Below the pieces are notes generated by a model, which made no database searches, had not been told where the DNA came from, and worked only from the letters and a program-made list of their open reading frames with translations. A stretch of 63,596 nt of DNA, counting the filler, from Octopus bimaculoides (lineage: Eukaryota): assembly GCF_001194135.2 (NCBI RefSeq). It is 8 parts of 8 records of this genome, joined end to end, with 100 filler letters (N's around TTAATTAATTAA, not from the genome) between each part and the next. Parts side by side here need not be neighbours in the genome. Positions count along the whole stretch, not along the records: positions 1 to 6,026 come from NC_069004.1; positions 6,127 to 25,386 come from NC_068996.1; positions 25,487 to 32,481 come from NC_068990.1; positions 32,582 to 36,092 come from NC_069010.1; positions 36,193 to 41,738 come from NC_069000.1; positions 41,839 to 53,950 come from NC_068987.1; positions 54,051 to 61,728 come from NC_068997.1; 1 more part is not named here. One strand, given 5' to 3'. Shown piece by piece: positions 43 through 56,268 of the stretch (the stretch's first letter is position 1; each line of letters opens with the position of its first letter). The translations under genes and the position numbers were made by a program.

Positions 43-44
<2 letters not shown>

Positions 45-797
45 AATAATCAGAAAATGGAGAAAATTTGATCAACAAACAAACAAATTGAACTACAGCG
101 GTTGATTATTTTTTAATACAAAACATGATATAACATTTCTTACGGCTGTTTCCACTTCCAATGTTAGTCGGAGCTTACAAAAGAAATTCTGAAAAGAATA
201 TTTGTCATCTTCCTATCACATTTGATGTACTACATGGAGCTTCATCAGAGTGAATAGAAATGCCTATAATAAAATGAACGAAGGGAAGAGGGAAGAAGAA
301 AGAACAGGGCCTTGAGAAGAGGCCAGAAGGCTCAATATATTAAAATAACATCATTTTTCAGCATGGAGCTTGAAGTCGATAAGCAAAAGAGTGAACGAGC
401 AGTGGTCTAGACCACTACTAGTTCACTCTTTTGGTCTAGTCCACTGCTAGGTCACTCTTTTCCCTATCAACTTCAAGCTCCACGCTGCAAGATGGTATGA
501 TTTTAATATATTGAGTCTTATGGCAAAGCCCTGTTCTTTCCTTTTCCCTCTTCCCTTCATTCATTTTATTACACACATTTGTATTCACTCTGATAAAGCT
601 CCATGTACTAGATCAAATGTACTATGAATATGATGACTATTATTTTCAGAATTTCTTTCATAAGCACCAACTAACACTGAAAGCAGAAATGGCTGTAAGA
701 AATTTTATGTCATGTTTTGTATTAAAAAATAATCAACCGATGTGGTTCAATCTGTTTGTTTGTTGATCAAAAGTTTTCTCCATTTTCTGATTATTTA
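43..797. mobile_element. ~755-bp foldback (long inverted repeat) made of two divergent Penelope pLTR-like arms
   Basis: 43-~414 is the imperfect reverse complement of ~432-797 (AAATAATCAGAAAATGGAGAAAA...TTTTCTCCATTTTCTGATTATTT). The arms carry hammerhead-like motifs. Confidence 0.85.
134..262 (-). ncRNA. Type I hammerhead ribozyme-like motif with a long loop 2
   Basis: Minus strand: CT-CTGATGA-AGCTCCA...(~70 nt)...TGGAAGTG-GAAA-CAGCCG-TA-AGAAATG. Both core halves are intact; stems I and II are imperfect. Confidence 0.55.
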
Positions 798-990
798 AAT
801 TTGATCCTTGACAAACTTTTGTTTCTTCTGTTCTTACCCTATGAGCATAGTGTGCCTGCACACCAATGCACAAAGATAGCACAGATAACTGATACCAATA
901 GTAAATACAGATAATATTATCCCTTAGACAGTTACAACTGCTAACTCTGCTTACCTTTCATATATATATATATATATATATATATGTAAA

Positions 991-1342
991 TATACTTTAT
1001 TGAAAAGCAGCAGAAATATCACAAAAACTGTTACTCAGAATTTCACATTCCTGTTCGTCGGACAATTAATGACAATATGAGGCTTTGAAAAGGCAGTTGC
1101 TCCCGCAAACCAAAATGGAATTTGGGATTTGCAAAGGGTCAAAATTGGCAACAAAAACAGGTCAGTGGAGACATGCAACAAACCAAACGAAAACAAACAT
1201 GGACGATGAATGAGAAAGTGAAACTCTGAGCAACAGATTTTGTGATATTTCTGCTGCTTTTCAATGAAGCATATTACTCTACCTCTAGAATTTGAGTACT
1301 ATTTTTTTTCACCTTGTTTCGCATTTATGTGCTTACTCCGGT
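991..1342. mobile_element. Penelope pLTR-like repeat with an inverted partial copy
   Basis: 991-1067 is the reverse complement of ~1196-1273 (TTGAAAAGCAGCAGAAATATCACAAAA / TTTTGTGATATTTCTGCTGCTTTTCAAT). Flanked by (TA)n. Confidence 0.7.
1026..1067 (-). ncRNA. Minimal type I hammerhead-like motif (U4C core variant)
   Basis: Minus strand AATTGT-CCGACGA-ACA-GGAA-TGT-GAA-ATTCTGAGT-A-ACAGTT: 6-bp stem I, 3-bp stem II with a GNRA loop, short stem III, GUA site. Confidence 0.6.
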
Positions 1343-1365
1343 GTATATATATATATATCACTGAA

Positions 1366-1600
1366 CCACGGTAGTAGCTGAATATATTCTTAAGTCCACC
1401 ATTTCGTCAATCGCAGCAGCTTCCAAGCTTCCCCACTAATTCAGTTATCAACTGAATTGCAAAGTGTTAACAGTTTTAAAGAGAACACCTCCTCAGCTAC
1501 ACTTTGGCATATATAGTTTGAGATTTGGTTCAGTAGAAAAAAGTTACATCAAAATATCTGCGACCTCAAGGGGGATAGTAAGGCACCTATTCACCTTCAA
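1366..1600 (-). pseudogene. Highly decayed RTE-like RT thumb fragment
   Basis: Minus translation with stops, LTIPLEVADIL...GSLEAAAIDEMVDLRIYSATT, resembles the RTE LTISLKKTEV...LGS...IDDEVxxRIAKAS region. Confidence 0.35.
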
Positions 1601-1832
1601 TTAACATAAACTTTTTAATTTCAAAATAAAAGTATACTTTTCTTAGGCTTAAATGATAGAAAAATGAATGAGGAGTTCAGAGTCATTAGTCGCATTGAAC
1701 AAAAATTAGTAGAAGAAAAGTTATGGGATGAAATGCCACGAAATTTCGGGTCAGTAAGTAAGAGAATAAGGAAGTAACGCTTAGCAGTAAGAATAAATAA
1801 AGAATATATTGCTAAAATGATGTTTATGTCCT

Positions 1833-1951
1833 AAGACGGTGAGCTGGCAGGAACGCTAGCATGCCGGGCGAAATGCTTAGCAGTATTTTGCCTGTGTTTA
1901 CATTTTGAGTTCAAATTCAACTGAGGTCGACTTTGGTTTTTATCCATTTCG
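1833..1951 (+). mobile_element. SINE family A (tRNA-derived), 5' part
   Basis: GGTGAGCTGGCAG...GAAATGCTTAGCAGTATTT...GAGTTCAAATTC B-box. Repeated more than 12 times in the window. Confidence 0.8.
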
Positions 1952-3071: not shown

Positions 3072-3118
<47 letters not shown>

Positions 3119-3124
3119 TACATA

Positions 3125-3505: not shown

Positions 3506-3551
<46 letters not shown>

Positions 3552-4016: not shown

Positions 4017-6026
4017 CATATATATATATATGGAAGTTGTCTACTCCTTATGCAGAGTTTGACCACCTCCTGTACCTACACCTTAGCACCATCATGGCAT
4101 CTGGTGTGGCTTTTTAAACCAGACAATGTTCTGGAAAGACACCCACATAGATTGCACCTCTGATTTGGACCACCAAGAGCTGCAGGAAAGTTCTGCTCTT
4201 TGTGGATCTCAAAATGTTTTTTGAAGCCTCCGCTGGATTTGCAAACATTCTGGCATACACTGCATTCAAAGGTGTGCACAGACTTATAGGCAGAATAAGT
4301 TAGTGGAGGTTTGCTTTCCATGCATTTGCAGATGAGATTTGAGGCCAGCAAAAGACAGGCATTGTCTGTCACAAACTGTGCACACAAAAAGGTCATTGTC
4401 ATTCACCTTCTCGATTGTTACATTCTTCCTTAGATCTCTTTTGAGTCTTACTTGTGTTATCTTGGCCTCTTCAAATGCTTTCCCTCCACTCCACACCTTT
4501 GTTCGCCATCCAACTCAAAGGTTTCTATATCTTCTGGAACCATTCCCAGTGACTTCATAGTAGTCCTTATGCCGTCCTTGAACCTTTTTTTAGGTTTATG
4601 CCAATAGCGTTTCCCCCCTGCAAGCTCACCATAAAACAGCTGCTTTGGCATGCATTCATCTGCCATTTGAACAATATGGCCACACCATCTCAGTTGGTTC
4701 CTCAAAATCAAAGCTTTAATTGAGGTGATGCCAGCAGATGCAAGGAGTGTTTGGAATAAAAGAACTCCATTTAATTTTTGAAATGCGATGGAGGCATTTT
4801 TGGTGGAATTGTTCTAACAATTTAAAATGCCTTTCATAACAAGTCCAAGTTTCACAGGAATACAACAGGGATGGTAAGACAAATGATTTGTAAAGAGCCA
4901 GCTTTGTATTCTTATTTATATGTCACTGGCACCAAATGCGTGACTCCAAGCCACCAAGTGCTTTTGCTGCCCTTTGAATTCGCAGCTGTATTTCTGTATC
5001 AAGATTTCCATCATTCTGAACAGAGCTTCCAAGGTAGACAAACGAATCGACAACCTCAAGTAACTTTCCCTTAACAAAAATTTTAGTGGGGTTACAAACA
5101 GCACCACACACAAGTTGATGCATTACAATTGTTTTTTTCAAGTTGATGGTCAAGCCAAAATCATCACACACCAAGTCAAATGCAGATACAAGAGATTGCA
5201 GACCTGTTTCAGAATGACTGACAAGATCGCAATCGTCAGCATACAAAAGTTTCCTAATGAGTGAAGTAAAAACCTTCGTTTTGAATTTCAGTCTGGTCAG
5301 ATTAAAAACATTCCCTGTTGTTCGATATTTTATGTAAATACCCACCTCAGAGTTTTGAAAAGCATGTGACAACACAACAGCAAAATATATTGCAAAGAGG
5401 GTGGGTGCATGAAGATCTCCTTGCTTTACTTCATTTTCCACAGCAAAAGATTCAGAGAACCTACCACCAAAATTAACTCTAGCTTTCACATCTTGATGCA
5501 AAGCCCTGATCATGTTTACAAATTTTTCTGGGCAACCTATTTTCCTTAGAATTAGCTACAGAGCATTTTGATTAACAGTATTGAATGTTTTGCTCAAATC
5601 AACAAAGCAATGGTATAGAGCAAGATTCTGTTTAATGCACTTTTCTTGTAATTGTGTGACAGTAAAGATACAATCAGCTGTGCCCCTAGAGGAATGAAAA
5701 CCACACTGAGACTCAGACACTATATTTGGAACTATAAAGGTATTTAAACATTCTAACAAAATGCGGGCAAGTACCTTTCCAACCACAGACAAAAGCAAAA
5801 TCCCACGAAAATTACCACACAGATCCTTTGACCCTGATTTATACAAGGAGACTAAAATGGCATCAATCCAGTCTTGAGGCACTTTCTCAGTTCTCCAACA
5901 GTGACAAATTAATATATTTAAGAGTTCAAACATTTTGTCACCTCCATATTTCAAGACTTCTGCACAGATTCCATCAGACCCTGGAGACTTATTGTTATTC
6001 AGTTTATTCACAGCTAAATAAATGTC
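4017..6026 (-). mobile_element. RTE-clade LINE, frameshifted, 5' end lost at the scaffold edge
   Basis: Consecutive ORF pieces: KSPGSDGI..NFRGILLLSVVGKVLARI..QCGF..FVDLSKTFNTV (5556-6011); VKQGDLHAPTLF..LLYADD..FVYLGS (4923-5513); QLRWCGHIVQM..PKQLFYGEL..PKKRFKD (4457-4711); C2H2 fingers; short 3' UTR with a (TA)n tail. Confidence 0.95.
4076..4496 (-). pseudogene. C-terminus of the RTE ORF with three C2H2 zinc fingers (one frameshift)
   Basis: FVCTVCDRQCLSFAGLKSHLQMH (4320-4388), FECSVCQNVCKSSGGFKKHFEIH (4202-4270), QRCNLCGCLSRTLSGLKSHTRCH (4094-4162). Confidence 0.85.
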
Positions 6027-6992: not shown

Positions 6993-7313
6993 ATCTGAGT
7001 TATCTGTCCAACAGGCCAAACGTAGTTTGAAATGTATCAAAATGTATAGAAATACCATACAAAACATTAAAACAGAATTCTATTATGAAGCTACTCCTGC
7101 AAACAGCCCAGCTTGTGGTGTTGTCATCTTCAAATGAATAACGATGTGGTCGATCTAAATTTGTTTAAATTAACTTGCGATGTTAAGAAGATCGCGCAAT
7201 TTGGAGAAAAACGTCGAATGCCCATATTTTCAGTTGTAATTAGCACATCAGAGTCCACCAACAAATATTGTCAATCTTGAAATATGTAGCCTATGTTGTT
7301 GCCCGATAAAACT

Positions 7314-7468
7314 GTGTGGCTGTGAGATAAGTAGCTTGCTTACCAGCGACATGGTTCTGGGTTCAGTCCTACTGGTTGGCACCTTGGGCAAGTGTCTTCT
7401 ATTATTGCCTCGCGCCGATTAGAGTCTTGTGAGTGGATTTAGTAGACAGAAACTGAAAGAAGTCCGTC

Positions 7469-7471
<3 letters not shown>
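7314..7471 (+). mobile_element. SINE family B, 5' half ending in (TA)n
   Basis: GTGGCTGTG..AGTAGCTTGCTTACC..GGTTCAGTCC..GGCACCTTGGGCAAGTGTCTTCT..GAAACTGAAAGAAGTCCGTCGTATATA. Confidence 0.85.
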
Positions 7472-7518
<47 letters not shown>

Positions 7519-8885
7519 GCTTACGTGCGGACAGAAGAGCTTCCTGTGGTTAGTGCCGCCACAAATATAATACTTGACCGACCTTATTTTTAACACATAT
7601 CGCAATGGATCCATACTCATTAAAAAAATTAGGCTTCTTCGGTTATTAGTGGCCGTTTTAAGTTGAATGCAAAAACGCAAATGTCTAAAAGTAGTCTCAA
7701 TTTTTCTCTTCCACTATAGAATAAATATTCATAAATGTCCCAGAAGAATTCTCCGAAGAAGTTATTTGCTAATCAGCTACGATTGCTAAAATTTTCTTTA
7801 GAAATTAACTATTTGCTGATCGTAATGTTCTTTGCAACACACTCAGCAAGCAACGAAATGCAACATCAGAAAACTAGGTACCTTGTCAACTAGGTACATT
7901 TTAGAACTTCTCATCAACGCTTCGAGTATGACGTTATTGCATGCTATTTTGGATGACGACATCCTAATTAGTTTACTGCATTTGTTATTCTTGTTTAGTT
8001 TTAGCTTAATCCTAATCAAGCAGCCATGTGTTCAAGTATGTTTCATCCTTGACCGTACACTTTATTTCGTCTAAATTATCTTTCTCCTTTCTTGTTGATG
8101 TTGATGTTGCTGTTAACCACAGTTTGACCTTGGTCAGACAGCCATATAATCAAAGTTATTACAAAGATCCTCATCACATTTTTTGTTCATACACTATATC
8201 TAGAATTGAAATATCTGTTAAGTTGGTATGATTTAAATTGGGAGAGATTTGGCTGAAATTACTAACAAGTCTTAATAAAGTTGAGCAGCGAGACTAGTGC
8301 GACTGTAAGTCTATTCCGCTAACTGTGCAGTAAACTGTGCAGTAAACGCGTATCAGATTTGTTTCCGTCGTATTTTGCAGTGCGTCAATGAGCCAACAAC
8401 GTGTTAATATAAACATATCCCCATATCCAAATGCTGATTTCTACTTAAGATATATAAGAGCAACAATATAGAACATCGAATAACATGACAAAATATAAGA
8501 TTCTTTTTAAGTTAAGTGTTCAACTATTGAAAATATCCACAAACCTGAAAAACTGCATGTGATTCCATCGATTTTCTTGGTTGGGTCACCTCTAAAATGC
8601 TACGACAGGTTCTGTTATCATCAGACGAATTATCTTTTTATACATTCAACATTAATATTGCAACATACAATACTAACACATGTGAGACTATCGAATTTAC
8701 AAAACGACTCTAGAGAATCAGCATGCTGCTAACGTAAGAGACGTGCTGCAGCGCAGAGTAAGTGGTTCGCATATCAGCAATCATTGATCTTGTTATAAAT
8801 ACCATATCAAGAGGACACCTGTGGATTTTGAAGTAAGAATGAAAAAGAATACATCCACGCGCGCACGTGCAAACATACGCGCGCG

Positions 8886-8920
<35 letters not shown>

Positions 8921-10228
8921 GCACAAATATTGCTCATATAAAAGTAGCTTCGATATCATTTGCACTTGAAATGCGGTCTCGCATACAAGTGTGCAATGAG
9001 TTCAGTTTTACTTCTCTGTCGCCACACTTGAATCGTCAGACATCTAATATCAGACATTGATCAACTTGTATCATCTGCACTCTTCTGCATTGGTTTATAT
9101 CCCAGTTGCTGAGTGTTAACAGATATTTGTTGATTTCATTGCCAATGATAACATAAAGTCTTTTTCCTTTTTTCCAGATAAAATAGGTCTTCATTTCTGT
9201 TTTAAATAGTTACATATATGTCCAGAACAAGTTATACCGTTACAACCTTCCTTGATTGATGTGGGTATTAAATATATAAATACAGATTTTTAAATTTACT
9301 CCTTGTTGCTTTTCATTAGGGTTGTATAATGTATATGTATTCATGTACTTACTTGTGTGTTTGTCCGATAGATGTGTAAAAACCCGTGCAAAGGAAATAC
9401 GTTATTCTGTTCACCACACCTTGCACAACCAAACAATTTCCTATATTAAGTCTTGCACAAGGCGTTAAAATAAACAGTTGCGACTGAGAGCTTAAACAAC
9501 GAGTGGAATAATGCCAAGCAAATGCCATTTAACCGACGGTGGCCTATGATTATGGCATTTAGCATGATACCGAAAAAAAAAAAGCATGAACAAAAAAGAA
9601 TTTGGAAATGTTTACGACATATTCTCAGAGTATACCGGTGCGATATCGTTTAGATTTTTTCCCCTCCTATTTCTTTTGCTCTTAAGTTTTTTATTATAAT
9701 TTCGTCTGTCTCTTTCCATCTTTTTTAAACTTTTTTCACCATTTCTACTTTTTCTTTCCGTTCTCTTTCTTTTCTCATCCTTCTTCTCATCTTCTTTCCC
9801 TTTTAATGCTCTTTCATGATTTTTTTCTCCACAATTCTATTTCTTTAGTTTACCTAGCTCTAGCTAACAACTAATCTACCTATCTAAATATATATCTTTT
9901 TGTATATCTTACTACAAGCGATTTATTACAAGTGTTTAGTCAATTCCTGCTTATTTCTGTATATCTAACAGTTCAACCAGTTATATGTATATTTAATTAT
10001 TTATTATCTATTCATCTACAAATCCAGCTAATTTTCTGTAGATTAGTACCTAAATTTGATGAATTTCAAGCGATCTATGAATCTGTCTGTTTTTTCTAAT
10101 CAATTTGCTCTTTCTCTCTCTTCCTCTTTCTTTCTTTTCTCTCTCTTCTTCTTTCTTTCTTTTCTCTCTCTTTCTCTCGCTCTCCCTCATTCCTTCTCTT
10201 CTCTCACCTTCTCTCTCTCCCTCCCCCT

Positions 10229-10283
<55 letters not shown>

Positions 10284-10568
10284 ATATTATGATTTTCTTA
10301 TTTTTCTTGCTTCAAGTTCTTTTCATATTTGCAAAGAGAGACTGCGTCCCATACCCACACATGCAGACAAGAGAAACTTACAGATAGCAACCAAATCTCT
10401 CTCATTTGAAGTTCTACCATTTTAAATGAAAAGAAGTATATTGGTTGATGATATGCTAAGATATACAAAACTTAACTTGTTGATCATAACTCTCATTCTT
10501 CAAATCGTAGTTACATTTAGCCAGAGCTACAGTGAGACTAACCACAAACAGCTACCAGATATCTTTTC

Positions 10569-10677
10569 ATATATATATATATATACATACAAATATGTTT
10601 ATATGTATATATATATATATACATACAAATATGTTTATATGTATATATATATATATACATACAAATATGTTTATATG
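10569..10677. repeat. 36-bp tandem minisatellite (3 copies, runs into a gap)
   Basis: ACATACAAATATGTTTATATG at 10585, 10621 and 10657. Confidence 0.9.
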
Positions 10678-11651
10678 NNNNNNNNNNNNNNNNNNNNNNN
10701 NNNNNNNNNNNNNNNNNNNNNNNNNNNNNNNNNNNNNNNNNNNNNNNNNNNNNNNNNNNNNNNNNNNNNNNNNNNNNNNNNNNNNNNNNNNNNNNNNNNN
10801 NNNNNNNNNNNNNNNNNNNNNNNNNNNNNNNNNNNNNNNNNNNNNNNNNNNNNNNNNNNNNNNNNNNNNNNNNNNNNNNNNNNNNNNNNNNNNNNNNNNN
10901 NNNNNNNNNNNNNNNNNNNNNNNNNNNNNNNNNNNNNNNNNNNNNNNNNNNNNNNNNNNNNNNNNNNNNNNNNNNNNNNNNNNNNNNNNNNNNNNNNNNN
11001 NNNNNNNNNNNNNNNNNNNNNNNNNNNNNNNNNNNNNNNNNNNNNNNNNNNNNNNNNNNNNNNNNNNNNNNNNNNNNNNNNNNNNNNNNNNNNNNNNNNN
11101 NNNNNNNNNNNNNNNNNNNNNNNNNNNNNNNNNNNNNNNNNNNNNNNNNNNNNNNNNNNNNNNNNNNNNNNNNNNNNNNNNNNNNNNNNNNNNNNNNNNN
11201 NNNNNNNNNNNNNNNNNNNNNNNNNNNNNNNNNNNNNNNNNNNNNNNNNNNNNNNNNNNNNNNNNNNNNNNNNNNNNNNNNNNNNNNNNNNNNNNNNNNN
11301 NNNNNNNNNNNNNNNNNNNNNNNNNNNNNNNNNNNNNNNNNNNNNNNNNNNNNNNNNNNNNNNNNNNNNNNNNNNNNNNNNNNNNNNNNNNNNNNNNNNN
11401 NNNNNNNNNNNNNNNNNNNNNNNNNNNNNNNNNNNNNNNNNNNNNNNNNNNNNNNNNNNNNNNNNNNNNNNNNNNNNNNNNNNNNNNNNNNNNNNNNNNN
11501 NNNNNNNNNNNNNNNNNNNNNNNNNNNNNNNNNNNNNNNNNNNNNNNNNNNNNNNNNNNNNNNNNNNNNNNNNNNNNNNNNNNNNNNNNNNNNNNNNNNN
11601 NNNNNNNNNNNNNNNNNNNNNNNNNNNNNNNNNNNNNNNNNNNNNNNNNNN

Positions 11652-11870
11652 ACACCACACCACCACACCACACCACCACATCACATCACACACTACCACA
11701 CACTACCTTAACACAAGATACCATACATCCCCAAACCATAGAACCACAGCACACCACATCACACCACTCCGCACACACTAGCACTGACCACTTCCCAGCA
11801 CCCACATCATCATCCATACACCCACACGTCAAGGTCACCAACCCCTATCCACACGCATACATACGCTCTC
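11652..11870. repeat. Degenerate (CACCA)n low-complexity tract
   Basis: Direct reading next to the gap. Confidence 0.75.
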
Positions 11871-11944
11871 ACATACACACGCATGCGCACCTTCGTTTTG
11901 GGATCACCACAACTTTGTTATCTCTTCTTCCTAGCTTTCCTGTG

Positions 11945-12145
11945 TGACCCCGCTGTCAGGCATTCGCCATGATGGATCGCTAGCCAGTAAATCTTTTTTC
12001 TATATTCTCTCCCTGTGTATTTCTGTGCTCCTTTCTGTCGAAAAGCGTAGGCTCGAAACGTAAAGGACTTTCTCATCTTCCCGAGCGTTAATCTAATACA
12101 ACTGCTTGTTGTTTGCACACCTGTCTTCTTTTGTTTATTGTAAAA
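11945..12145 (+). mobile_element. Penelope pLTR-like repeat with a degenerate hammerhead motif
   Basis: CTTT-CTGTCGA-A-AAGC-GTAG-GCTC-GAAA-CG-TA-AAGG at 12031-12066. Confidence 0.5.
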
Positions 12146-12176
12146 TCCAACCATACACACAGACCCACACACACAG

Positions 12177-12263
<87 letters not shown>

Positions 12264-13301
12264 CGTATGTATGCATGTATGCATGTATGCATCTATCTAT
12301 CCACGATTAGCCAGAATCACGAAACAATGGTAATAACCTATTCACAATTCTTTACTTCAACTTGAATATGAAATCGAGATTACAGGTTACCCCGTCTATA
12401 ATTTCACTGCCACCTTCACATATTTACTAATTCCTTTCTGCTTATTAACTCGGTACAACACCTTTTATTATTTGTTCATACAATCCCATAATCCTAGACT
12501 AATCTTAGCCAATTTATCCTGTATCACTTCTTTCTCATCTGTGCATTCTTCTAAAGTATATCTAACTACAATATAATATATAACTCCTTTATTCCATTAT
12601 TGCGTGTCCTTATAGCATTCTGTATATTTTATTCACATTTATTTGTATGTCTAAAATTTCACAAGACAGTTTTGGCTGTGCAAAAATATATCTCGTGTAC
12701 ATTATCAATTGTTGCGCCCTCTTCGAAACAGAAATAACCATAGTTTCAAAATTTGCTTACTAAATTTAAATGTTTATTTCAGTTTCTTCACCAGCAATGC
12801 ATTCTAATTTCTCCCACAATTCCTCACCCCCCACTGTGCATGTGCACGAGCGTGTGTCTATGAGCGGTATGTATGTGCATTAGGATTTTGATTTTTTGGA
12901 AGTAAACAATTTCCTGTATTAAAAGTCGATGAATAATTTCATATAAATAAGGAAAATAACTTTTTTGTAAGTTTTTTTAAATAAATGTCACCCCAACTGA
13001 AGAAATCTAACACCACCTCTGACCAAAACCATGCAAAATTCTAGTGGGGTTCATAATCCCTACCCAAGATTTTACCAAACTTGGTATGCTAACTTAATGC
13101 AGTGCAGAAGCAGTATATCTCAAAATTCAGCTTTCAAGTTTAAGTAGTTTAGGAGTAATAGAGTTTTTAATTTGTTACCACGTAGGTCCTACTTTAGGAG
13201 ATATCTTCTTCCTCTCCTTTTTATTTCTGTGACGCAAAAACCTCTGACTACATTAACTGTTTTTCAGAATAGCAGGCGTATCCAACTAGAGTATCTAAAA
13301 T

Positions 13302-14300
13302 AATGTCTCATAAGAGAAGTGTCACTCAAAGAAACAAAAAAATTAGGACGAAGACTCTCGTGCAATTTCAAGACTCACATAGGAAAAGAAGACCTGTTCC
13401 TTTAGAAGAGCATTCTTTGGAAAACAACTGCAGGATACCAGTGAAACTTCAAATTTTCTGTAACTGACTGTTCCTTGACGGTACCATCAAAGGAAGAAAA
13501 GAAAGAACAAAGGAAATTTCGAAAGAAGTAACTTTTTTATGGCAAAAGAAATTAAATTTCCCATATTTATCAATTCAAAATGTGAAAGCAAAAGTAGAAG
13601 AACTGCTGAATACCTACGAAAAATGTGTAAAACGAGGAAAATACAATTCATTGAAAGGAATTTTTGACATCACAAACGAAAACGGTGAATGACTGTACAG
13701 TGAAGATAGAAGGTTATATTATCTTCAAATTGAAAGCAAGGGATAGGTTAGTTATGGAACTGGAAAGGCAGCCAGTTCCAAAACTTTCCATCCATCCAAA
13801 AGAAGAAAAGTGTCCTTAATGCCAACTTCAACCAAAGCAACTCCAGTGGCATCGTAGCGTCTGAAGCTGAGACAGACTGAAAGTGAATATTAAGAGTCCG
13901 AAAAATCAGATGAAGAATCCACACAAACAAGGAGGAAGTATAACAAAACTAGAACTGCAACCAACTTAGTAATATCTTCCAAGCTATCAACTCAAAGAGC
14001 GGCAAAACAGTTTATCGACAATTATCTCAAGATGGAATGAATGTCGAGACTTCTTTCCAATCTGGCATTTACAGATCGACCATCAAAGAAGCTGTTGAAC
14101 TTAAAAAGAAAATGAAAATAATGCTACTTTTAGAAAACTGGTCATTGCATTTTGATGGTAAACGTATTGATGACCAGAATATCAAGTGCTAGCTTAAAGA
14201 ATGAACATAGAAAAGTTAAGTTAGAAGCATTCCAATTATCCAACGGAGAAGCCAATAATACAGAGAAGTTCAAAACACTTGAGGAACTCCAACGAATACA
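13302..14300 (+). pseudogene. Decayed DDE-type DNA transposase remnant (superfamily not assigned)
   Basis: Broken frames give KEVTFLWQKKLNFP..KVEELLNTYEKCVKRG..HPSKRRK..QSGIYRS..ENWSLHFDGK (14139-14162). The HFDGK motif resembles the first catalytic Asp region of HWDGK-type transposases. Confidence 0.6.
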
Positions 14301-14455
14301 AAAATTCGACGAATGAGATTTATGTCCACATTTCAAAAAATACATATTTTCGAAAATTAAAAGTCGACTACCAGATATTTAGTAAACCATTCACATACAG
14401 CTGGTTTACTTCTGCTTGACATCGAGTTATTATAACGTTGATTATCTCCCTTGTG

Positions 14456-14459
<4 letters not shown>

Positions 14460-14531
<72 letters not shown>

Positions 14532-14665
14532 TTATGTTTGACTTTTGTTTTGCATCTGTACAAGTTGGATCCAAGTCTCACCCAGAGACCTCAAGAGACA
14601 ACAAGTTAGAAGTTCATGTAGGTGTTATGCCTAGGGTACCATATATTTGGATTTGTACAGTTTCG

Positions 14666-14760
<95 letters not shown>
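14460..14760 (-). mobile_element. Probable LINE 3' UTR fragment embedded between two (ATT)n arrays
   Basis: A ~135-bp unique core (14531-14665) ends on the minus strand in CAAAAGTCAAACATAAA(ATA)n, with (ATT)n on both sides. Clade not assignable. Confidence 0.4.
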
Positions 14761-14762
<2 letters not shown>

Positions 14763-14955
14763 TACTTCTTCTCCTTCTTCTTTACGAGCGTTTCTTGTTT
14801 AAACGTCATCTACTCAAAAAATAACTGGAAAACGGTCTTGCTTTCAGCTTGATAAATGGCAGAATAAATTCTTCTTTCGATCAGGAAACACTGGATAGCT
14901 ATCTGCAAGATCTGTGTTTTTTGTTTTTTAATTTAATTTAAGATTATCTTTGCTC

Positions 14956-15014
<59 letters not shown>

Positions 15015-16451
15015 GTATGTATGTATGTATGTATATATACATGCATGTATGTGTACAGAACATAAAAAAACGTAGACAGAATGAGAAACGAAAACATAGA
15101 AAACAAAAACTTTAAAAAAAAATTTTTCGAACAACGAAAATAAATAAACAGAGAAAAGAGACATGCAACATAAAGAACATTTCTCTCCATCAGTTTTCCC
15201 CTGTTTTATCTACTCCGCGTTTCGAAGGCAAGGACAAGACGATACTTCGTTAAAACAGTCCTTCCCGCAAAGCAAATTAAATAAAACGTTGGATTTTTTT
15301 GCGGAGGGTGAAAGTGGTTACAAAAACAGGACAGTGAGAACAAAATAGTAAAAACACACGGTGAGGGCTGTTAAGCCAAGACGATGGGAAGTGGTGAACG
15401 CTGAAAAAACGAGCTTTGAGAAGAGACAGATAAAAGCATGTCTTGTCTTTACGAATGAAGTGGAAAAAAGATAGATGAATGGCCGTTGGTCACATATGAG
15501 CGACGAGAGGGTATATACTCTATTTTTGTATATACTCTATTTTTGCCCAAACATTTTTTACCTTTTCTAATTTCGTTTTTTGCCTTTATCAAAGGACTCA
15601 TCAACCTCTGACAACCTCCACCTCCACCACCACTACACTTTATTTCCGATATGTAATGTGTAGCATTAAACCATTCATTCACCCCTTCTTATACCTTAAC
15701 TTTTATATATATTTCAGCGATTTATATTACATCAATTGCGGTACACGTACATATCCAAAGATTGGGAATCCCATACAACTTTATTCAAGGTGTTGACTAT
15801 TCGGGTGGGTGAAGCGAACAGAAAATTCAGTATTACATATAGGTTTCTAAAATATACTCTCGGTGTGGGTATATAAAATGTTAGGACAAAAAGACAATAT
15901 AGATAATAGTGGAAAAAGATATGTCCAGAAAAATGCTTTTTGCATTTTTTAAGGGTCTAGGTTTTCCTATTTCTATTTAAAAAGGACATGCTATTTCCAT
16001 TAAAAAAGGACAGTTAAATTTCTAGATATTAGTTTAGATTTAGGTATGGGACGATATTAAACGTATCAGATGCCTAATAACAATTTTAAATACACAAGTA
16101 CAAATTCAAAAGCATCCCAAAAATATTAATTTTATCGTTAAAAATACCTATCTTTGTATATTATGTGTCTCTGCTAATGAAAAAACAAATTCAAAAGTAA
16201 TGGAAAATGCTACAACCATTCTCTAACTGAAGCTGAATATAGAGATGAAACTTTCTATATTCCTAAAAATAGAATTAAAGAACCTAGCAATAAAATTAAT
16301 GCTGTGAATTCTATAAATATTCATAATGAGAAAAATAAATAGAATAGAAAGTCACTTATACAGCAAAAACACGTGTCGGAAGGCAATATAAAAAATGCGT
16401 TTTAATAAATAATTTCATATATATTTCCATAAATATTAACTAAAACACTGC

Positions 16452-17480
16452 AAACGTTACTTAGATAACCAGCTGGTTCTGTGGACATACGCATTTAACC
16501 AGTTTATTGATTTCAAAAACCTAATTAACAATATAAACAAGACTAATGACTTCATCAAGGAATACAATAAGACGCAACTCTCATTCTTGGACATTATAAT
16601 CATCAAAACAGACAAAAACATCGAAACAGATATTCATTAAAAACCAACACATTCTAAATAATACCAGCTGTTCTCTTCATGCCATTCCAAACATACGAAG
16701 ACTAATAATACTTAGAAGAATCTGCACAATTGTTTCAAAAGCTAAAACTCGTAATAAAAGACCCCAGGAATTAAAACAAACACTGCTTGAAAGAAATATT
16801 CGTTAATGTTAATAGACAACGGAAAACAGAGCGTGCCACAGCAATAGATATTCAAGAATTACGAAAAACAAAAACCACGTCAGCTTCATCTAGTACTCGA
16901 CCTTTTATTACAACACACAACACCAAAACAGAGGGGTTCACAACATAATCCATCAGAACATTCCACTAATGAGACAAGACTCAAGGATGAAATAAATACT
17001 TGAAATACACAAAATGATCACCAGCAGACTATCAAAATCCCTGAAAGATCTACTAACCAATGCTAAATCACCCACAACAACAGTCAAAAAGTGTAGCCTC
17101 CATAACCGCGGGACTTGTATCAACTTCATTGAAGACAAGAGATGTACATTTAAATCAGAATACGTTTTTACCATAAAAAAATCTTTTGCCTGTTTGTTAA
17201 AAAATTTCAGTATATTTCATTAAATGTACAGAATGTAATGAAGATTACATAGGTCAAACAAAACTCGCTCTCAGAAATAGACTAACTATTCATCGTCAAC
17301 AAATACGAGACCCAAGTCCTCGACAGATCCCACTGAGTTGACATATAGACATATGTGCAAAATATAAGTTTCTGAAATTCCAAGTGTTCCCACTTTACGT
17401 CTGCTCAGTCAATACCACAGACCAAGACAGAAAAACAAAGAAAATATATTCATACAAAAATACAAACCAAGACTGAATAA
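16452..17480 (+). mobile_element. Penelope-like element remnant (RT C-terminal half plus GIY-YIG endonuclease)
   Basis: KRYLDNQLVLW (16452), LSFLDI..IETDIHxKPT..SCHSKHTK, LKDLLTNAK..VKKC..RGTC, VYFIKCTECNEDYIGQT..LRNRLTIHRQQIR (from 17210). Several stops and frameshifts. Confidence 0.9.
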
Positions 17481-18030
17481 ACTTTAACATAGTACATTTA
17501 CCAACAACTATCTATTTACATATAAACACAATCTATCACTTGGCGTGTTGAATTTATGCGGCTTTTACCCATATGACACTAACGCACAAATTTTGTGAAG
17601 AAAATTTTATGCCTACGTGTATACATACAAATCATAACTATTCAGACACTGGGCTACATAGAAACAACTCCTGTCCACTCTACCACTTGACAGATTAGAT
17701 TCGGAGAGCTTTGATCGTGTAGGACTATCACGAGACACGTTAACTCAACTGTGATACCTTTAACTTACGGTGCCAAACATATTGTCACATGGCATTAATG
17801 AACGGACATAGGGGGGAGCTTATAAAAATTTGAAAACCTAATCATGTGATCATTCTCAGCCAATCAAATCATATGCAAAATAGAGAATAATCTGAGTCAT
17901 GTTCTTTCTATACAAACGAGAGAATTTTTTAACTCCAATCTGAAGCAAAACAGTTTCAGCATAACTCCATATCTTTCTATCTCAACTTTTGAAAAAACTG
18001 AGAAATCTGCGAAACTGGTTATCTTTAAAG

Positions 18031-20792: not shown

Positions 20793-20954
20793 TATTATTA
20801 TTTTCTATATACATCTTTCTAAGCCCGAAAGAATCCCTACCTTTCCTATTGCGTTACTTTTTCATGTACACCCGAAAGTTTCTTTAAGTATACAAATATA
20901 TTACTACTGTTCCTTTTATATATATACAAATGTATATACAAATTAAGATTCATT

Positions 20955-21312: not shown

Positions 21313-21442
21313 TCTGAATTGTAATTTAAATATTTATAGACCAAGACTTATACTAAAAACTATTATTTTATGAATATTACTATTCACAAAAAAAGAAATA
21401 GGTAATGAACCAATAGTTCATTGGGTAATTTAAACCTTTATT

Positions 21443-21486
<44 letters not shown>

Positions 21487-40029: not shown

Positions 40030-40490
40030 TCTCTTTTTCTTTTACTTGTTTCATTCATTTGACTGCGGCCATGCTGCAGCACCACCTTAAAGGGTTTTAG
40101 TCGAATAAATCGACCCCAGAACTTATTCTCTGTAAGCCTAGTACTTATTCTATTGGTTCTCTTTGGTCGAACTGCTAAAGTTACGAGGACATAAGCTTTC
40201 CAACATCGGTTGTCAAGCGGGGGGAGGATAAACATACAACCCCCCCCACACACACACACACACATTTTTGCATAATTTAGACAATAGTTTATTCATCGCA
40301 CCCTGTATGTTTATACATACATACATATATACGACGGGCTTCTTTCTCCTTCCGTCTACCAAATGATGAGGCTTTTGCCAGCCTGGGGCAATAGTAGAAG
40401 ACACTTGCCCAAGGTGCTACGCAGTGGGACTGAACCCGGAACCATGTGGTTGGGAAGCAAGCTTCTTCCCACACAGCCACGCCTGTGCCT
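40030..40490 (-). mobile_element. SINE family B, full length
   Basis: Both halves plus the internal (CA)n linker are present. Confidence 0.85.
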
Positions 40491-40956
40491 ATCAATCCAC
40501 ATCTTTTGAATTTGTAAAACCCCTTTTTTTCCTTCTTTGTAGTCTTTTGTGTTATAATGGACTGAAGTTTCATCTGAGACGAAACCTTACATTTGTGCCG
40601 CTTTCATCTTCTTCATTTTGTTATTGATATGACATTGAGGTTTAACTGCTGAATATAAAATAATAGATTAGAAATTCAGTTCTTTTCTTTTTCAAGGTCA
40701 GGAAGCTTGCTTCCAAATCAAATGGTTCTGGGTTCAGTCCCAATGCATGGCACCTTGGGCAAGTGTCTTCTATTATAGCCTTAGGATCTTTCTAATTTGG
40801 CGGGCGCCACTTTTTATTTTTTATTTAGTGTGTTTTCTACCGAAACACTTTAAAACTTCGTATACTTGTATATTTTGTCTTATAGAACAGAGAAAAATTT
40901 TTGTATTCGAAGTTATTTCATGTTAAAAGNNNNNNNNNNCAACAACTATCGGCGAA

Positions 40957-45324: not shown

Positions 45325-45528
45325 CCTCTGTATAATAATACCCGATCAAAATGTTGGTTGGTTGGTTGGTTGGTTGATTCCTCTGGTCATGCTTTACATC
45401 ATATAAAGACAAAGATAGATAGAAAGAGAAAAATAAACGAGTAAGGGGCAAGATAAGAATACATATTAGGATTGGTGGCAGGCAATGGGTTAATGAATAC
45501 TACACACCAATGCGCGCGCACACACACA

Positions 45529-47189
45529 ACGAATTTTACGACTGTTACGGTAAAACAATCAAACATCTATTGTATATGGATGATCTAAAGCTATATGCTA
45601 CAAATGATAAACAGCTAGAAATATTACTACCGATAGTGCATGGATTTACCAAAGAAATAAACATGAAATTCGGCTTAGAAAAACGTGCGAAAGCAACAGT
45701 GAAAAGACAAAAAGTAGTTAAGGGTAACATTATCACGGTAGCTAAAGCAAATGAAGCAAGAGAACTAGACCAAAGCCAGGTATACAAATACTTAGGAATC
45801 AGAGAACCAGATACAGTTCAGCACACACAAATGAAAGAGAAGAAAGGAATTCTTTAGACGAGTTAGATTAATCCTTAAAACAGAGCTCAATGCAAAACAC
45901 AAGATAATAGGTATCAACACCCTAGCTAATCCAGTTGTAAATTACAGTCACAATATCCTTAATTGGACTCTATATGAACTTACCAAACTAGTCAGGAATA
46001 CACGTAAAATAATGACAGAATTTAGGATGCACCACCAAAATCTGACATAGAATGTTTATATATACAACGAATTGAGGGTAGTAGAGGCCTTATGCAACTA
46101 GAAAACTATTACAAAATAACCATGGTAGGATTTCGTACAGAAATATCTCATTGAGAAGCAAGGAAAACTGGTTCAAATTGCCGCAAAACACGAACAAAAC
46201 AAAAAACTGTTTTCTGTCTTTAAGGAAGCTCAAAAATACAAGAAAGATGTCATAGAATCTGACATTGTACGGAGAAAGAGGAAACAACAAAAGCTGTAAA
46301 TCAACTGAAACCCAAACTGAAAGTAGTGCAACAAAGTATCAGAATAAAACATTGGGAAGAAAATCCAGTACATGGCAGATACTGCGATAAGCTAAACAGA
46401 AGGTTAATAAACAAAATAAAATCCTAACAATGGTTTAAATGCTGAGGACACAAAGCAGAGACTGAAGGATTTTTAATTGTAACAAAAGATCAAAGCATTA
46501 CCACCAGAAACAGAGAATGAAGAAAAATACAGGTAACTGCAGAGTATGTGGTGATGGCGAAGAAAAATAAATCATTTTGTCTCTGGCTGCCCAATCTTGG
46601 CTAAGGAGGAATATATCCACAGACATGACAGAGTTAGGAATTGTATACATTGGAAGCTAGGCCAACATTATAGAATAGCAAACAGAAAAAAGATGGTATG
46701 GGGACACCCCAGAAAAGGTTTCAGAAAATGACAAATTAACAGGAGATATGCCAATATACACAGATAGAGAAACCTGATATAATTGTCAGAGATCATGAAA
46801 AAAAAAAAAGATGCTTTCTAATCAATGTATCAATACCAACAGATGACGATGTATCTCTAAGAGAAACAGAGAAACGTTCAAATACAATGATCTGGAAATA
46901 GAGTTAACCCGAATGTGGAGCCTAAAAACAGAAGCAATCCCTATAATGATAGTTGCATTTGGTACGATTAAAGAAACATCAAATAATAACATAACCAAAA
47001 CACTACAATTTACGATTAAATACACTTGTGACATAGAAAATAGCACTACTAGGCGCAGCACACACCTACGTAGAGCACATTCAACACAATGAAATTAACT
47101 GCACCACATTAAACCACTGCGCACAACCAAAGCACACAGAGCTGCACTCGATAGTGTAGTGAAAGCACGTGATAAAAATAAGACTACTG

Positions 47190-47805: not shown

Positions 47806-48469
47806 ATTCTGCTTTTGCGAGTTGTATTATGTTGCTCCCTCATAAGATGTATTTTATAGCTGACTGGAATGATGGTGTCGAGTCGCAGAATATAGATTCT
47901 ATTTACTCATTGGCATGAAGCTTAGATCACATGACACATGGCTTCAGAAACTGATATACTGAAACGAACAAACGCAAACGTACATAGGCACATGCACAGA
48001 AACAAATAACCACATAGACGCATACATTGACAAGTCTGTAGCAATGAGTAAGTATAAGGAAAGGAAATGATGTGTGAATTACACCAAAGTCATTTATATT
48101 CTATAGAAAAGAATGGAAGGAATTCCGGAGAGTTATTCTAATGATAAATTGAAACTGATGAAGTAAACGAATTCAGTTTTCCTTAGTTGAACCCAGAAAT
48201 AAACGGCAATAATACTGAAACACTATGTGCCACAGCGGCACTTCTTGACGCCCTACAGCAAAAACGTTAGATTTAAACATGTATTTTATCTTTTATTTTT
48301 TACTTGTTTCAATCATTAATCTGCGATCATGCTAGGGCTGAACGAATACATGGTAGGGCATAAAGATCTCCCACATTTGGAAGCGGTACCGTGGGGACGT
48401 AAACAAAAAGTAGAGACAAGTGACAAGTCTCATTTGGAAGGGTAAAATCTACCATTTTTTTGTATTTGG

Positions 48470-48628
48470 GAGTGGCTGTGTGGTAAGTAGCTTGCTTAAC
48501 AATCACATAGTTCCGGGTTCAGTCCCACTGCGTGGCACCTTGGGCAAGTGTCTTCTACTGTAGCCTCGGGCCGACCAAAGCCTTGTGAGTGGATTTGGTA
48601 GACGGAAACTGAAAGACGCGCTTCGTAT
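48470..48628 (+). mobile_element. SINE family B, 5' half
   Basis: GGAGTGGCTGTGTGGTAAGTAGCTTGC..GGTTCAGTCCCACTGCGTGGCACCTTGGGCAAG. Confidence 0.9.
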
Positions 48629-49052
48629 ATATGTATATATATATGTGTGCGTGCGTGTGTGTGTGTGTGTGTGTGTGTGTTTGTTTGTTTGTGTGCATGT
48701 GTTTTTCTTTAGGATTTNNNNNNNNNNNNNNNNNNNNNNNNNNNNNNNNNNNNNNNNNNNNNNNNNNNNNNNNNNNNNNNNNNNNNNNNNNNNNNNNNNN
48801 NNNNNNNNNNNNNNNNNNNNNNNNNNNNNNNNNNNNNNNNNNNNNNNNNNNNNNNNNNNNNNNNNNNNNNNNNNNNNNNNNNNNNNNNNNNNNNNNNNCA
48901 GAAACATAATAAATTTGTTCTTGGATGGTTGTGTTCTCTTTTTAAACCCATTTCCAATGTGGAAAAACTTCATGCTCCACCCTGTCGTACTTACTTGTTT
49001 TTAAAATATGTTTAATTTCTGCCGGTATTTTTTTTTTTAAATACTACGTGAT

Positions 49053-49090
<38 letters not shown>

Positions 49091-49119
49091 ACACACACAC
49101 ATACACACACACTTACATA

Positions 49120-49280
49120 TATACGACAAGCTATTTTGAGTTTCCGTCAGCTAAAACTATTCTCAAGGCTTTGGTCAACCCGAGATATCGTATAAGACGC
49201 TTGCCCAAGGTGCCATGTAGTGAGACTGACCACGGAAACATGTAGATGGAAAGCAACGTTCATACTAGACAGCCACGCCC
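49120..49280 (-). mobile_element. SINE family B, 5' half (diverged)
   Basis: Reverse complement of the family B head. Confidence 0.7.
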
Positions 49281-51083: not shown

Positions 51084-51143
<60 letters not shown>

Positions 51144-52436: not shown

Positions 52437-52513
<77 letters not shown>

Positions 52514-53887: not shown

Positions 53888-53950
<63 letters not shown>

Positions 53951-54050
53951 NNNNNNNNNNNNNNNNNNNNNNNNNNNNNNNNNNNNNNNNNNNNTTAATT
54001 AATTAANNNNNNNNNNNNNNNNNNNNNNNNNNNNNNNNNNNNNNNNNNNN

Positions 54051-54354
54051 TGTGTCAACAATAAACAAGATGAGGACAAATATCCCTCAATTGTAAATAA
54101 TGTAAATAATGTACAATATTCCTCATCTCTTAAATATAGAACTGTATTATCTAATCGGTACGGAGCCGACATTAGACTTCAATAATAATAATAATAATAA
54201 CATCGAAAAATACCTTAGGAATGAGAACCCAGGTTCGAAATTCCCTCAAGACACCTGAAAAAGGTTGGAGGGTATATCAGCCGAAACGTTGTGTTAACAA
54301 CAAACAAGATGAGGACAAATATCCGTCAATTGTAAATAATGTAAATAATGTACA
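54051..54354 (+). mobile_element. Two tandem copies of a Penelope pLTR-like repeat with a hammerhead-like motif
   Basis: 54051-54115 recurs at 54290-54354. ACAC-CTGAAAA-A-GGTTG-GAGGGTATAT-CAGCC-GAAA-CG-TT-GTGT at 54251-54294. Confidence 0.65.
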
Positions 54355-54587
54355 TTAGCATGATCATCACAAACAATTTAACAATTGAACCAAAAAAAAA
54401 AAACCAGAGCCTATATGTGATCGCTCGATTTGCTAGAAAGTGCAGCTAGCCCCTACAGTCTTAAAAAGGAGGTCGCCTTATATAACGAGGTCCTAAATTT
54501 CCTGCTCATGAGGGAAAAACTGGATGGCTACTGCTGAAATGTCTTTCATCAAAAGAAAGTTCCTTTATGATTCACTAAGCGCTAGTC

Positions 54588-55007
54588 TGCTGTTTCTATT
54601 GTTGCCTGAAATAATGATTCCTTACTTTGGCATAAGCACACATACATTTGCTATAAAGGAAGACACTTGCTCAAGGTGTCACACTATTGGGTTGAACCCG
54701 AAACCATTTGGTTGCGATGCGTGCTTTTTAACCGCACAGCCATGCTAGCGCCTACATTCAAAGTTTTGAAATTTAACTTTAAAATATTGCATTTATGATA
54801 TTTTAAGCCTCGGGTTCAAATTTCGTTGTAAGTCATCCTCGACTCTCGGATCCTGTAGGACTGGGACATTCTGCACCCGGGTCGATTCCGTCGAACTTAT
54901 ACAAAACCCAGCCTCCACCAACATCTTTGTTCCTTTGCCCTGTACACATTTATGTGAGCTTATGCCAAAGTAAGAAATCATTATTTCAGGCAACAACAGA
55001 AACAGCA
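54588..55007. repeat. 63-bp inverted repeat pair enclosing SINE fragments
   Basis: 54588-54650 is the reverse complement of 54945-55007 (TGCTGTTTCT..TTGTTGCCTGAAATAATGATT..TTACTTTGGCATAAGC). Confidence 0.8.
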
Positions 55008-55145
55008 TCAACAAAAAAGAAAGAAAGAAAGAAAAGCGACAACAACAACACCAACAACAAAAATAGCAACAAGCTACAAATCATTATCTGGTCCCACGGC
55101 CGTCACTTATCGTTATTACCATCAGCGCCCTTGAGTATCCACAAC

Positions 55146-55213
<68 letters not shown>

Positions 55214-56181
55214 CAACAATGCAGCAACAACATTAACAATAACAATAACGACAAGAAGAGTACACTAATAAATCTAATGCCACTGTTTTGTTGACATCGT
55301 TTTTTAGACCGTCCTCTAATGCCGTTATCCAGTGAGAAGAAACATGCTATATATATGTGTGTGTGTGTGTGTTTATNNNNNNNNNNNNNNNNNNNNNNNN
55401 NNNNNNNNNNNNNNNNNNNNNNNNNNNNNNGGGGGGAATATTGAGGGAGCCCTTTTCTATCCTATCCCCCAGCTGCCACTAAGCTGTTTTCATCTTTTCG
55501 TGTTGCAAACCGAACTGAACAATCATATTTTTGACCCGTGAACATAATTCATATTATTGCTTGGAGCAGACGACGTTTAAGGGAAGAGCTACAAAATAAA
55601 AAAAAAAAGCAGACGATAGGAAATAAATACATAAATAAATAAATATTTTTTTAAAACAAATTTACAATAAATGATAAACAACAGCGAAGACAATAACAGC
55701 TACAAAGTACCCTCACCAAAAAAAAAAAAAAAAAAAAAAAAAGAAAAAGAAACAGAAAGGAAAAGAAAAGTTAATGGTAGAATGTATCAGATAATAAGAG
55801 TTTCAAGAAAATCAGCTTAAAATATTCTTTCACGTCACGAAAAAATTTATTTCTTATTCTTTCTCTATTTTTTCTCTATCTTCTGTTCCTCACTTTATAT
55901 ATATAATCTTATTTTGCTTTCTCCTTATCTTCCTCTCTTACTACTACTACTACTACTACTTCTACTACCAGCATCGTGATCACGCAGAGCTACCGCGACC
56001 ATCCCGTGTCTTCTTGAACTAAATAATATAGCATGTCCATTGTTCATTACAAAGACAGATATCCTAAGATATATATGTGTGTGTGTGTGAAAGAGAGAGA
56101 GAGCGAGAGAAAGAGAGAGAGAGGGAGAGAGAGAGAGAGAGAAAGAAAGAGATGAGAAAGGAATAAAAGATTATCTTATGA

Positions 56182-56268
56182 ACTTCATTAGCTTACAGCT
56201 ATTTCTGATATAAGACACACAAGACTCCACTGCCGCTGATAGCAGAAACAGCTGTAAGCCAATGAAGT
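56182..56268. repeat. Mini-foldback with 30-bp arms carrying GAAACAGCTGTA
   Basis: ACTTCATTAGCTTACAGCTATTTCTGATAT / ATAGCAGAAACAGCTGTAAGCCAATGAAGT. Confidence 0.75.

Follow-up and report, generated by a model that had tools for sequence, protein, structure and literature searches.

Head-to-head foldbacks in a stretch of the Octopus bimaculoides genome: probable footprints of truncated Penelope-like insertions from several families

Insertions of endonuclease-bearing (EN+) Penelope-like elements (PLEs) have been described as carrying an inverted, 5′-truncated copy, a one-sided tail and (TA)n targets (PMC8557442, Fig. 2 legend), with head to head reported as the most frequent PLE arrangement and with junction palindromes of 18-38 bp (PMC3846280). 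The PLE enzyme cuts both strands of AT-rich DNA and two adjacent RNA start sites make the tail, hammerhead cleavage not being required in vitro (PMC11167929). Dual minimal hammerheads on opposite strands have been reported 100-700 bp apart, most motifs deriving from truncated PLEs (PMC4209133), and PLE hammerheads with a short stem III are described as needing a same-strand partner (PMC4209133; PMC6765202). The sealing of the insertion is called still unresolved (PMC8557442; PMC11167929). Here five inverted repeats (foldbacks 1 to 5) are compared with these systems in a microsatellite-rich stretch of 63,596 bases from Octopus bimaculoides, termed the window, of which 4,573 bases are N, leaving ~59 kb of called sequence, and about one third is G+C.

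The foldbacks are probably the footprints of single, old, severely 5′-truncated PLE insertions of several unrelated families, with the mirrored arm likely having been built anew at each landing. The directly observed evidence for this is the geometry, the one-sided extension, the two 3′ ends of one family, a sequencing depth that drops inward from the 3′ end, a near single-copy junction in foldback 2 with differing junctions elsewhere, and the decay of the arms. That they derive from PLEs, by which enzymatic reactions and in what sequence of steps, is inferred by analogy with published insertions. The layout is already published (PMC4209133; PMC3846280; PMC8557442), hence no new system is at hand; the architecture is known and the families are new and unnamed, although Repbase or Dfam may already list them and the supplements of PMC4209133 and PMC8557442 may contain related motifs or families.

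Self-comparison of the repeat-masked window recovered the four inverted structures given in a preliminary description of this DNA (E-values 1e-17 to 1e-87) together with a fifth at 32211-32477. The self-matching arms lie at 45-381/465-795 in foldback 1 (80%), 989-1050/1214-1275 in foldback 2 (90%) and 20948-21067/21200-21319 in foldback 3 (86%), with foldback 4 forming one self-match at 56164-56286 (78%); over the aligned arms, identity in foldbacks 1 to 5 is 86, 86, 83, 86 and 92%. The arms meet 5′ to 5′ in all four orientable foldbacks. One arm ends at a microsatellite and the opposite arm extends further, by ~160 nt (foldback 1), 68 nt (foldback 2), 113 nt (foldback 3) or 100 nt (foldback 5), before reaching (TA)n. 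Foldback 2 had been described as symmetric over 991-1342, of which the inverted arms stand, ending at 989 and 1275, and the remainder (1276-1342) is one-sided. (TA)n borders both outer ends of foldbacks 1, 2 and 5 and lies near both ends of foldback 3, with foldbacks 1 and 2 having one tract in common; foldback 4 abuts (GA)n at one end, not (TA)n. The centres are of differing types, namely a 16-nt palindrome with a 29-nt restart (foldback 1), a 136-nt piece of a foreign repeat (foldback 2), a 26-nt duplication with a deletion (foldback 3), a short spacer (foldback 4) and a 40-nt perfect palindrome at 32357-32396 (foldback 5, in which the one-sided stretch of ~100 nt is on the left), and a (TA)n remnant is absent from every one of them. 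The parts of the foldbacks, and two motifs outside them, are as follows.

43-416, minus: foldback 1, inverted (tail-less) arm; outer end at (TA)n 1-42, 16-nt perfect palindrome 401-416 at the inner end
134-262, minus: foldback 1, hammerhead-like region; CTGATGA at 248-242, GAAA at 152, would-be cut after 141; fails the descriptor given below
404-461, plus: foldback 1, centre; 29-nt unit in two direct copies (18/20 at period 29), a short restart before the full direct arm
433-797, plus: foldback 1, direct arm; core with G8A
798-957, plus: foldback 1, one-sided extension, likely the tail; family sequence itself, then (TA)n 959-985
989-1067, minus: foldback 2, inverted arm; minimal type I hammerhead 1067-1026, would-be cut after 1032
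1068-1203, no strand: foldback 2, central spacer; fragment of another repeat, of which a diverged copy lies at ~15230-15400
1204-1275, plus: foldback 2, direct arm; start falls inside the hammerhead core
1276-1342, plus: foldback 2, tail of about 68 nt; then (TA)n
20948-21129, minus: foldback 3, inverted arm; bears the best motif of the window, a type I hammerhead (21091-21007) with canonical core
21148-21333, plus: foldback 3, direct arm; 26-nt unit doubled at the start, 5′ half of the hammerhead deleted
21334-21446, plus: foldback 3, one-sided stretch, likely the tail judging by position only; precedes (TA)n
32110-32477, no strand: foldback 5; arms ~32211-32315/32375-32477, 92% alike, (TA)n at both ends, no hammerhead core
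56164-56286, no strand: foldback 4; 55 aligned nt per arm, 3′ hammerhead half only, left end in (GA)n
12029-12067, plus: solo minimal hammerhead-like motif; core CTGTCGA (A6U), first stem II pair broken
54250-54295, plus: minimal hammerhead-like motif; G8A, folds as a hammerhead

The five foldbacks cannot be aligned with each other, save for a 14-nt hammerhead motif and a block of 14-28 nt common to foldbacks 1 and 3, such that the earlier term "multi-family" is correct, and for four of the five families no other copy was found in the window. The differences between arms comprise 60 transitions and 45 transversions, with CpG sites holding 14 of the 30 transitions of foldback 1 and with no significant strand bias of G-U pairs (25 versus 35, p = 0.25); they look like ordinary mutational decay with CpG loss. 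The block shared by foldbacks 1 and 3 contains CTCCATTTTCTGA near the arm ends (743-792 and 21304-21331) and in the family of foldback 1 has a depth far above the rest; judged by its position, it could be a conserved region in which reverse transcription starts. The diverged copy of the foldback 2 spacer repeat, at 15180-15400 (minus strand), runs into a GAAACGCG stretch that may be a decayed hammerhead half. A 46-nt solo piece of the foldback 2 tail lies at 61438-61483 on the minus strand (85% alike). The inverted pairs 40387-40780 and 48468-49280 were set aside because they belong to a repeat present many times in the window; a 63-nt inverted pair (54588-54650/54945-55007, 92% alike) surrounds a copy of a common short repeat and has no hammerhead.

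In all four foldbacks of the preliminary description the hammerhead-like letters point away from the centre, and the motif GAAACAGC(T/C)GTAAG that it reported in three places was found by exact search exactly three times, at 152 (minus), 21244 (plus) and 56245 (plus). This 14-nt motif makes up the 3′ half of a type I hammerhead, in which the palindrome ACAGCTGT, intact or decayed, serves as stem III. That every arm carries hammerhead elements proved true in a reduced sense. Against a type I descriptor comprising the core, a stem II of at least 3 bp, GAAA, UH and a stem I of at least 3 bp, two of the eight arms pass, that at 21086 (minus) and, when U4 or A6 is allowed to vary, that at 1061 (minus); the remaining arms hold remnants. 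The 21086 motif has a canonical core, 10 of 11 stem II pairs and a 5-bp stem I, and the 1061 motif a CCGACGA core (U4C), a 6-bp stem I and a 3-bp stem II, with comparable matches in 0 of 150 and 3 of 150 shuffles, respectively, at thresholds chosen afterwards. U4C is a known natural hammerhead variant with much lower activity in vitro (PMC3088659), and in the family of foldback 2 it is present in the window copy and in two other copies seen. In the minus arm of foldback 1 the core halves are 89 nt apart without a proper stem II, in the plus arm of foldback 3 CTGATGA has been lost by deletion, and each arm of foldback 4 keeps the 3′ half alone. A nearer CCGACTA was rejected as the real core of foldback 1, with G8 absent on both arms and stem I not forming. 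Judged by sequence, therefore, the hammerheads in the foldbacks are mostly remnants. The minus-strand arm had been said to keep the better core, which holds for all three larger foldbacks (p = 0.25) and not for the fourth, which favours the plus arm (3 of 4, p = 0.63), such that a minus-strand bias lacks statistical significance.

The motif at 21086 is predicted to fold alone into a three-way junction. The isolated motifs fold no better than shuffles (z from -1.2 to +1.6), such that folding energy gives no evidence for them, and in an Rfam search up to E = 5 no hammerhead family stood among the best 150 of 176 matches, which were microsatellite-driven microRNA noise. Outside the foldbacks, the direct-orientation motifs reported at 12031 and 54251 are present and both fail the descriptor (A6U and G8A, respectively). 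Around the latter there is a direct repeat of period 239 (54051-54345) in which the downstream part of the motif is repeated 239 nt upstream, the upstream copy being interrupted by an assembly gap and having a longer 3′ end; this could be a partial tandem or two insertions. A further type I candidate lies at 7749-7870 (plus) with a CCGAAGA core (U4C), a 3-bp stem III and a 95-nt insert in stem II that is closed by 9 of 10 pairs; it is matched by 0 of 150 shuffles (threshold set afterwards) and is not formed in the predicted fold. In three families the cleavage triplet and the next bases read GTAAG, at 139-143 (minus), 21253-21257 (plus) and 56254-56258 (plus). GTAAG is also a splice-donor consensus, and PLEs carry introns near the hammerhead. 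A pattern scan for the shared hammerhead motif gave no match in viral contigs and 50 in metagenomes, nearly all of them chance matches without stems and resembling the window arms by one 18-nt match at most. One metagenome contig (L041, 9-490) holds two divergent hammerhead-like motifs ~400 nt apart with a 76-nt inverted match of 89%, unrelated in sequence to the window.

Foldbacks 1 and 2 belong to genome-wide repeat families, as found in public runs matched to 43-1542 at 80% likeness (contigs of three DNA runs and reads of one RNA run, covering these two foldbacks). The depth of locus-identical contigs served as a rough single-copy unit (47.9 in run X1 and 28.4 in run X2). Of the 190 joints, 77 between-letter rows and 1,886 loose ends, 15, 12 and 24 were listed, respectively, and on such excerpts the fraction of copies in foldbacks cannot be stated. 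In the family of foldback 2 (family 2) the arm ends reach depths of 354,503 and 667,635 in X1 and carry 7,000-18,000 copy-equivalents, and the 5′ part of the hammerhead stands at ~2,600-2,900 copy-equivalents versus ~21,000 for the 3′ part. At place 1204, where the spacer meets the direct arm, summed depth is 106, 67 and 66 in the three DNA runs, about two single-copy depths in X1 and X2, the two runs with a reference. One contig of organism B spans this place, as would fit an insertion that is old and shared, and in run X14 32 contigs continue beyond 1203 with a single consensus resembling the flank of the ~15230-15400 copy. Among the joints listed, other family 2 copies pass from inverted to direct arm at 1045-1314, 1056-1312, 1057-1272, 1059-1310 and 1064-1267, and a joint at 1051-1219 seen in 56 RNA reads marks a foldback at another locus that is transcribed. 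Contigs of family 2 end at 1274 and continue into (TA)n in 14 cases in X1 and 14 in X2, and end at the tail end (~1342) before (TA)n in 82 and 68 cases; these two ends, about 68 nt apart, are the two-ended tail pattern.

Five foldbacks of five unrelated families in 59 kb, together with the further head-to-head joints of family 2, bear out the earlier suggestion of a recurrent product. Its companion suggestion, a self-propagating unit, is not supported for foldback 2, with junction 1204 at about two copy-equivalents and the listed joints elsewhere differing. In family 2, the match ends at 1064, on the outer edge of stem I, for 103, 97 and 113 contigs, whose further letters agree at only 51-54%; this may point to a common 5′ boundary, although the window arm itself also ends there. 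It is conceivable, if rather unlikely, that family 2 is a 150-nt mini-Penelope parasite lacking an open reading frame (ORF), with ~20,000 stubs, a U4C core and a full unit starting at the outer edge of stem I, and that its enzyme-made foldbacks, some of them transcribed, supply a large share of the near-perfect double-stranded RNA (dsRNA) behind the exceptional hyper-editing of the host.

By analogy with the published reaction, the foldbacks as footprints of single PLE insertions would arise as follows. The element enzyme would nick both strands of AT-rich DNA, here (TA)n, and reverse transcription would begin at two nearby RNA sites, with one start giving the tailed arm and the other the tail-less arm. 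Both cDNAs would terminate early, in many cases close to the structured hammerhead, and snap-back or template jumps would join them head to head at the inner ends, a manner of sealing that would leave palindromes, short duplications or captured filler at the centre. The resulting foldback would be a dead product, because it has one sense hammerhead per strand and so no tandem partner for a short stem III, and because the hammerhead is predicted to be sequestered in pairing with the antisense arm, which is transcribed ahead of it.

Several points weigh against this account. No reverse transcriptase (RT) or GIY-YIG frame was linked to any arm among the 150 of 358 filtered ORFs scanned in the window, although truncated copies are not expected to retain one. 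The extensions of 68-160 nt exceed the published tail of 30-40 bp, target-site duplications are unreadable within (TA)n, and foldback 5 has no hammerhead core. Foldbacks 3, 4 and 5 are described by their anatomy in the window only. As to the copy survey, summed depth is no copy number and the copy-equivalents are approximate, Logan contigs tend to break at hairpins, and opposite-strand joints come without a stated direction. Lastly, foldback 1 stands at ~15 copy-equivalents in its centre bin and ~80 within 30 nt of the centre, and since its centre is not single-copy some units may have moved whole. The ORF scan yielded broken fragments of long interspersed nuclear element (LINE) type at 4079-6026, 33446-35670, 45423-45854 and 63113-63460. 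They include RT domains (Pfam RVT_1 at 4926-6026 and at 45423-45854), along with zinc fingers, a zinc knuckle and part of an endonuclease; protein searches with three of the LINE-type fragments returned no close relative with a name.

It is on foldback 1 that a self-propagating unit is most plausible, the whole mirror being copied either by PLE enzymes in trans or, as a miniature inverted-repeat transposable element (MITE), by a TA-targeting DNA transposase. Pseudo long terminal repeats (pLTRs) alone can carry unrelated DNA in trans (PMC3846280), the 16-nt palindrome marks a defined inner end, and depth stays high until near the centre, the centre bin (393-442) having depths of 755, 421 and 673 in the three DNA runs and 15-16 copy-equivalents in X1 and X2. 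The arms reach ~80-270 copy-equivalents, a block near the arm end 900-1,400 and the far extension 31-37, with X1 depth dropping from 17,167 to 1,764 across 798-957. Against whole-unit copying, the two ends are not symmetric, the extension consists of family sequence, the foldback 1 centre is spanned by none of the contigs listed, and the joints differ in other copies: three of the six opposite-strand joints listed lie off the mirror positions (168-254, 698-753 and 703-754), each at single-copy depth. The joints 134-716, 269-577 and 335-510 were dropped as mirror positions between the arms. In foldback 2 the spacer comes from another repeat and the junction stands, as given above, near two copy-equivalents. 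Self-propagation is judged unlikely.

A second alternative holds that the host keeps the foldbacks as RNA devices, with dsRNA serving ADAR or small-RNA pathways and the ribozyme acting as a switch. The predicted hairpin of foldback 1 is strong (-435 to -465 kcal/mol over 758 nt), the larger foldbacks are predicted to form helices of up to 24-41 bp, and a family 2 foldback at another locus is transcribed (56 reads). Penelope repeats have been reported as heavily edited in lizard (PMC5625713) and Xenopus tropicalis (PMC10636886), and for octopus a large proportion of loci is described as capable of forming dsRNA (PMC5625713). On the other side, the arms have diverged by 8-17% with many transversions and no G-U strand preference, and editing alone would not demonstrate function. 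The RNA survey matched 1,910 reads from ~6% of run X21, with paralogues mixed in; none of them was at least 99% like the locus at 43-1542 and 43 were 95-99% like it, most reads coming from other copies. A listing of runs that contain 43-1345 named no RNA run, a blank without evidential weight. In this one ordinary RNA run, read ends pile up at 108 and 514 and not at the would-be cut sites 141, 1032 and 1232. The share of A>G plus T>C is 77/142 in RNA versus 97/211 and 94/208 in DNA (p = 0.13 and 0.10), no significant excess in what is a weak test with paralogues mixed, such that the RNA data neither show nor exclude editing and the link to A-to-I editing drawn earlier finds no support in this run. 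The preliminary description also expected self-cleaving RNA and long dsRNA together, which is unlikely in one molecule. Read-through of a head-to-head pair inevitably yields the antisense arm before the sense arm. In equilibrium predictions, stem II of the 21086 motif has a pairing probability of 0.76-0.88 by itself and of 0.0 within the foldback, whether complete or nascent, and that of the 1061 stem I falls from ~0.7 to 0.0 with the antisense arm; since the earlier arm is predicted to disable the ribozyme, a molecule would either be cut or form long dsRNA, not both. Retention as RNA devices is held to be very unlikely.

Still less probable are chance neighbours, that is two independent insertions of the same family into one (TA)n hot spot, a pairing that the preliminary description had set against its own proposal. 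(TA)n does draw repeated insertions: foldbacks 1 and 2 share a tract, and the 54251 family has two direct copies 239 nt apart. Rough odds of 1e-5 and 8e-4 per copy under random placement, which hot spots would raise, nonetheless tell strongly against chance pairing; moreover, four of the five families are without another copy in the window, the orientable foldbacks, four in number, are without exception head to head, and (TA)n remnants are missing from the centres. An assembly artefact from fold-back chimeric reads, as a short-read draft with many gaps might contain, is scarcely credible given arms that differ by 8-17%, runs of four organism A studies that contain 20-77% of the sampled words of the stretch, and coverage of place 1204 in three independent DNA runs.

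Read as footprints of single PLE insertions, the foldbacks add unnamed families to a known insertion pattern, which persists down to arms of 55-375 nt. Their centres, with palindromes, restarts of 26-29 nt and a captured piece of a foreign repeat, would record how PLE insertion is sealed, and a hairpin made in one insertion could raise the dsRNA load of a genome without host selection.

Set beside the known systems, the foldbacks share with EN+ PLE insertions, as described in the sources (PMC8557442, Fig. 2; PMC3846280; PMC11167929), the head-to-head inverted copy, junction palindromes, one-sided extension, two 3′ ends, (TA)n targets and strong 5′ truncation. In the window, 5′-truncated copies stand head to head at AT-rich or (TA)n targets, with a one-sided tail and two 3′ ends in family 2 and a type I hammerhead in two arms. 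They differ in keeping no ORF remnant, in extensions of 68-160 nt rather than 30-40 bp and in that the parent ORF was not found. With the minimal type I hammerheads of metazoan PLEs (PMC4209133; PMC6765202) they share a short or palindromic stem III, an extra base before stem II, dispersed families and opposite-strand pairs 100-700 bp apart, but foldbacks 1 and 3 carry inserts of 89 and 56 nt instead of a short stem II, family 2 has U4C and the motif at 12031 has A6U. A literature search found no account of MITE-like palindromic PLE units. MITEs and palindromic Harbinger repeats (PMC8969392; PMC5625713) are likewise short, non-coding inverted structures able to fold into long dsRNA, but are described with symmetric ends and a shared centre, whereas in the window the family sequence runs 68-160 nt beyond the mirror point on one side only, and the centre of foldback 2 is locus-specific (~two copy-equivalents, with ~15 for that of foldback 1). 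Metazoan non-LTR retrozymes, that is those without long terminal repeats (PMC7761336; bioRxiv 10.64898/2026.07.22.740005), are similarly non-coding, 150-400 nt long, equipped with a type I hammerhead and likely PLE-derived. They are described as direct tandems with at least two ribozymes on the same strand; direct tandem units with complete hammerheads were not found here, the 54251 locus being a partial direct repeat with one motif, and the foldbacks carry one hammerhead per strand, pointing in opposite directions.

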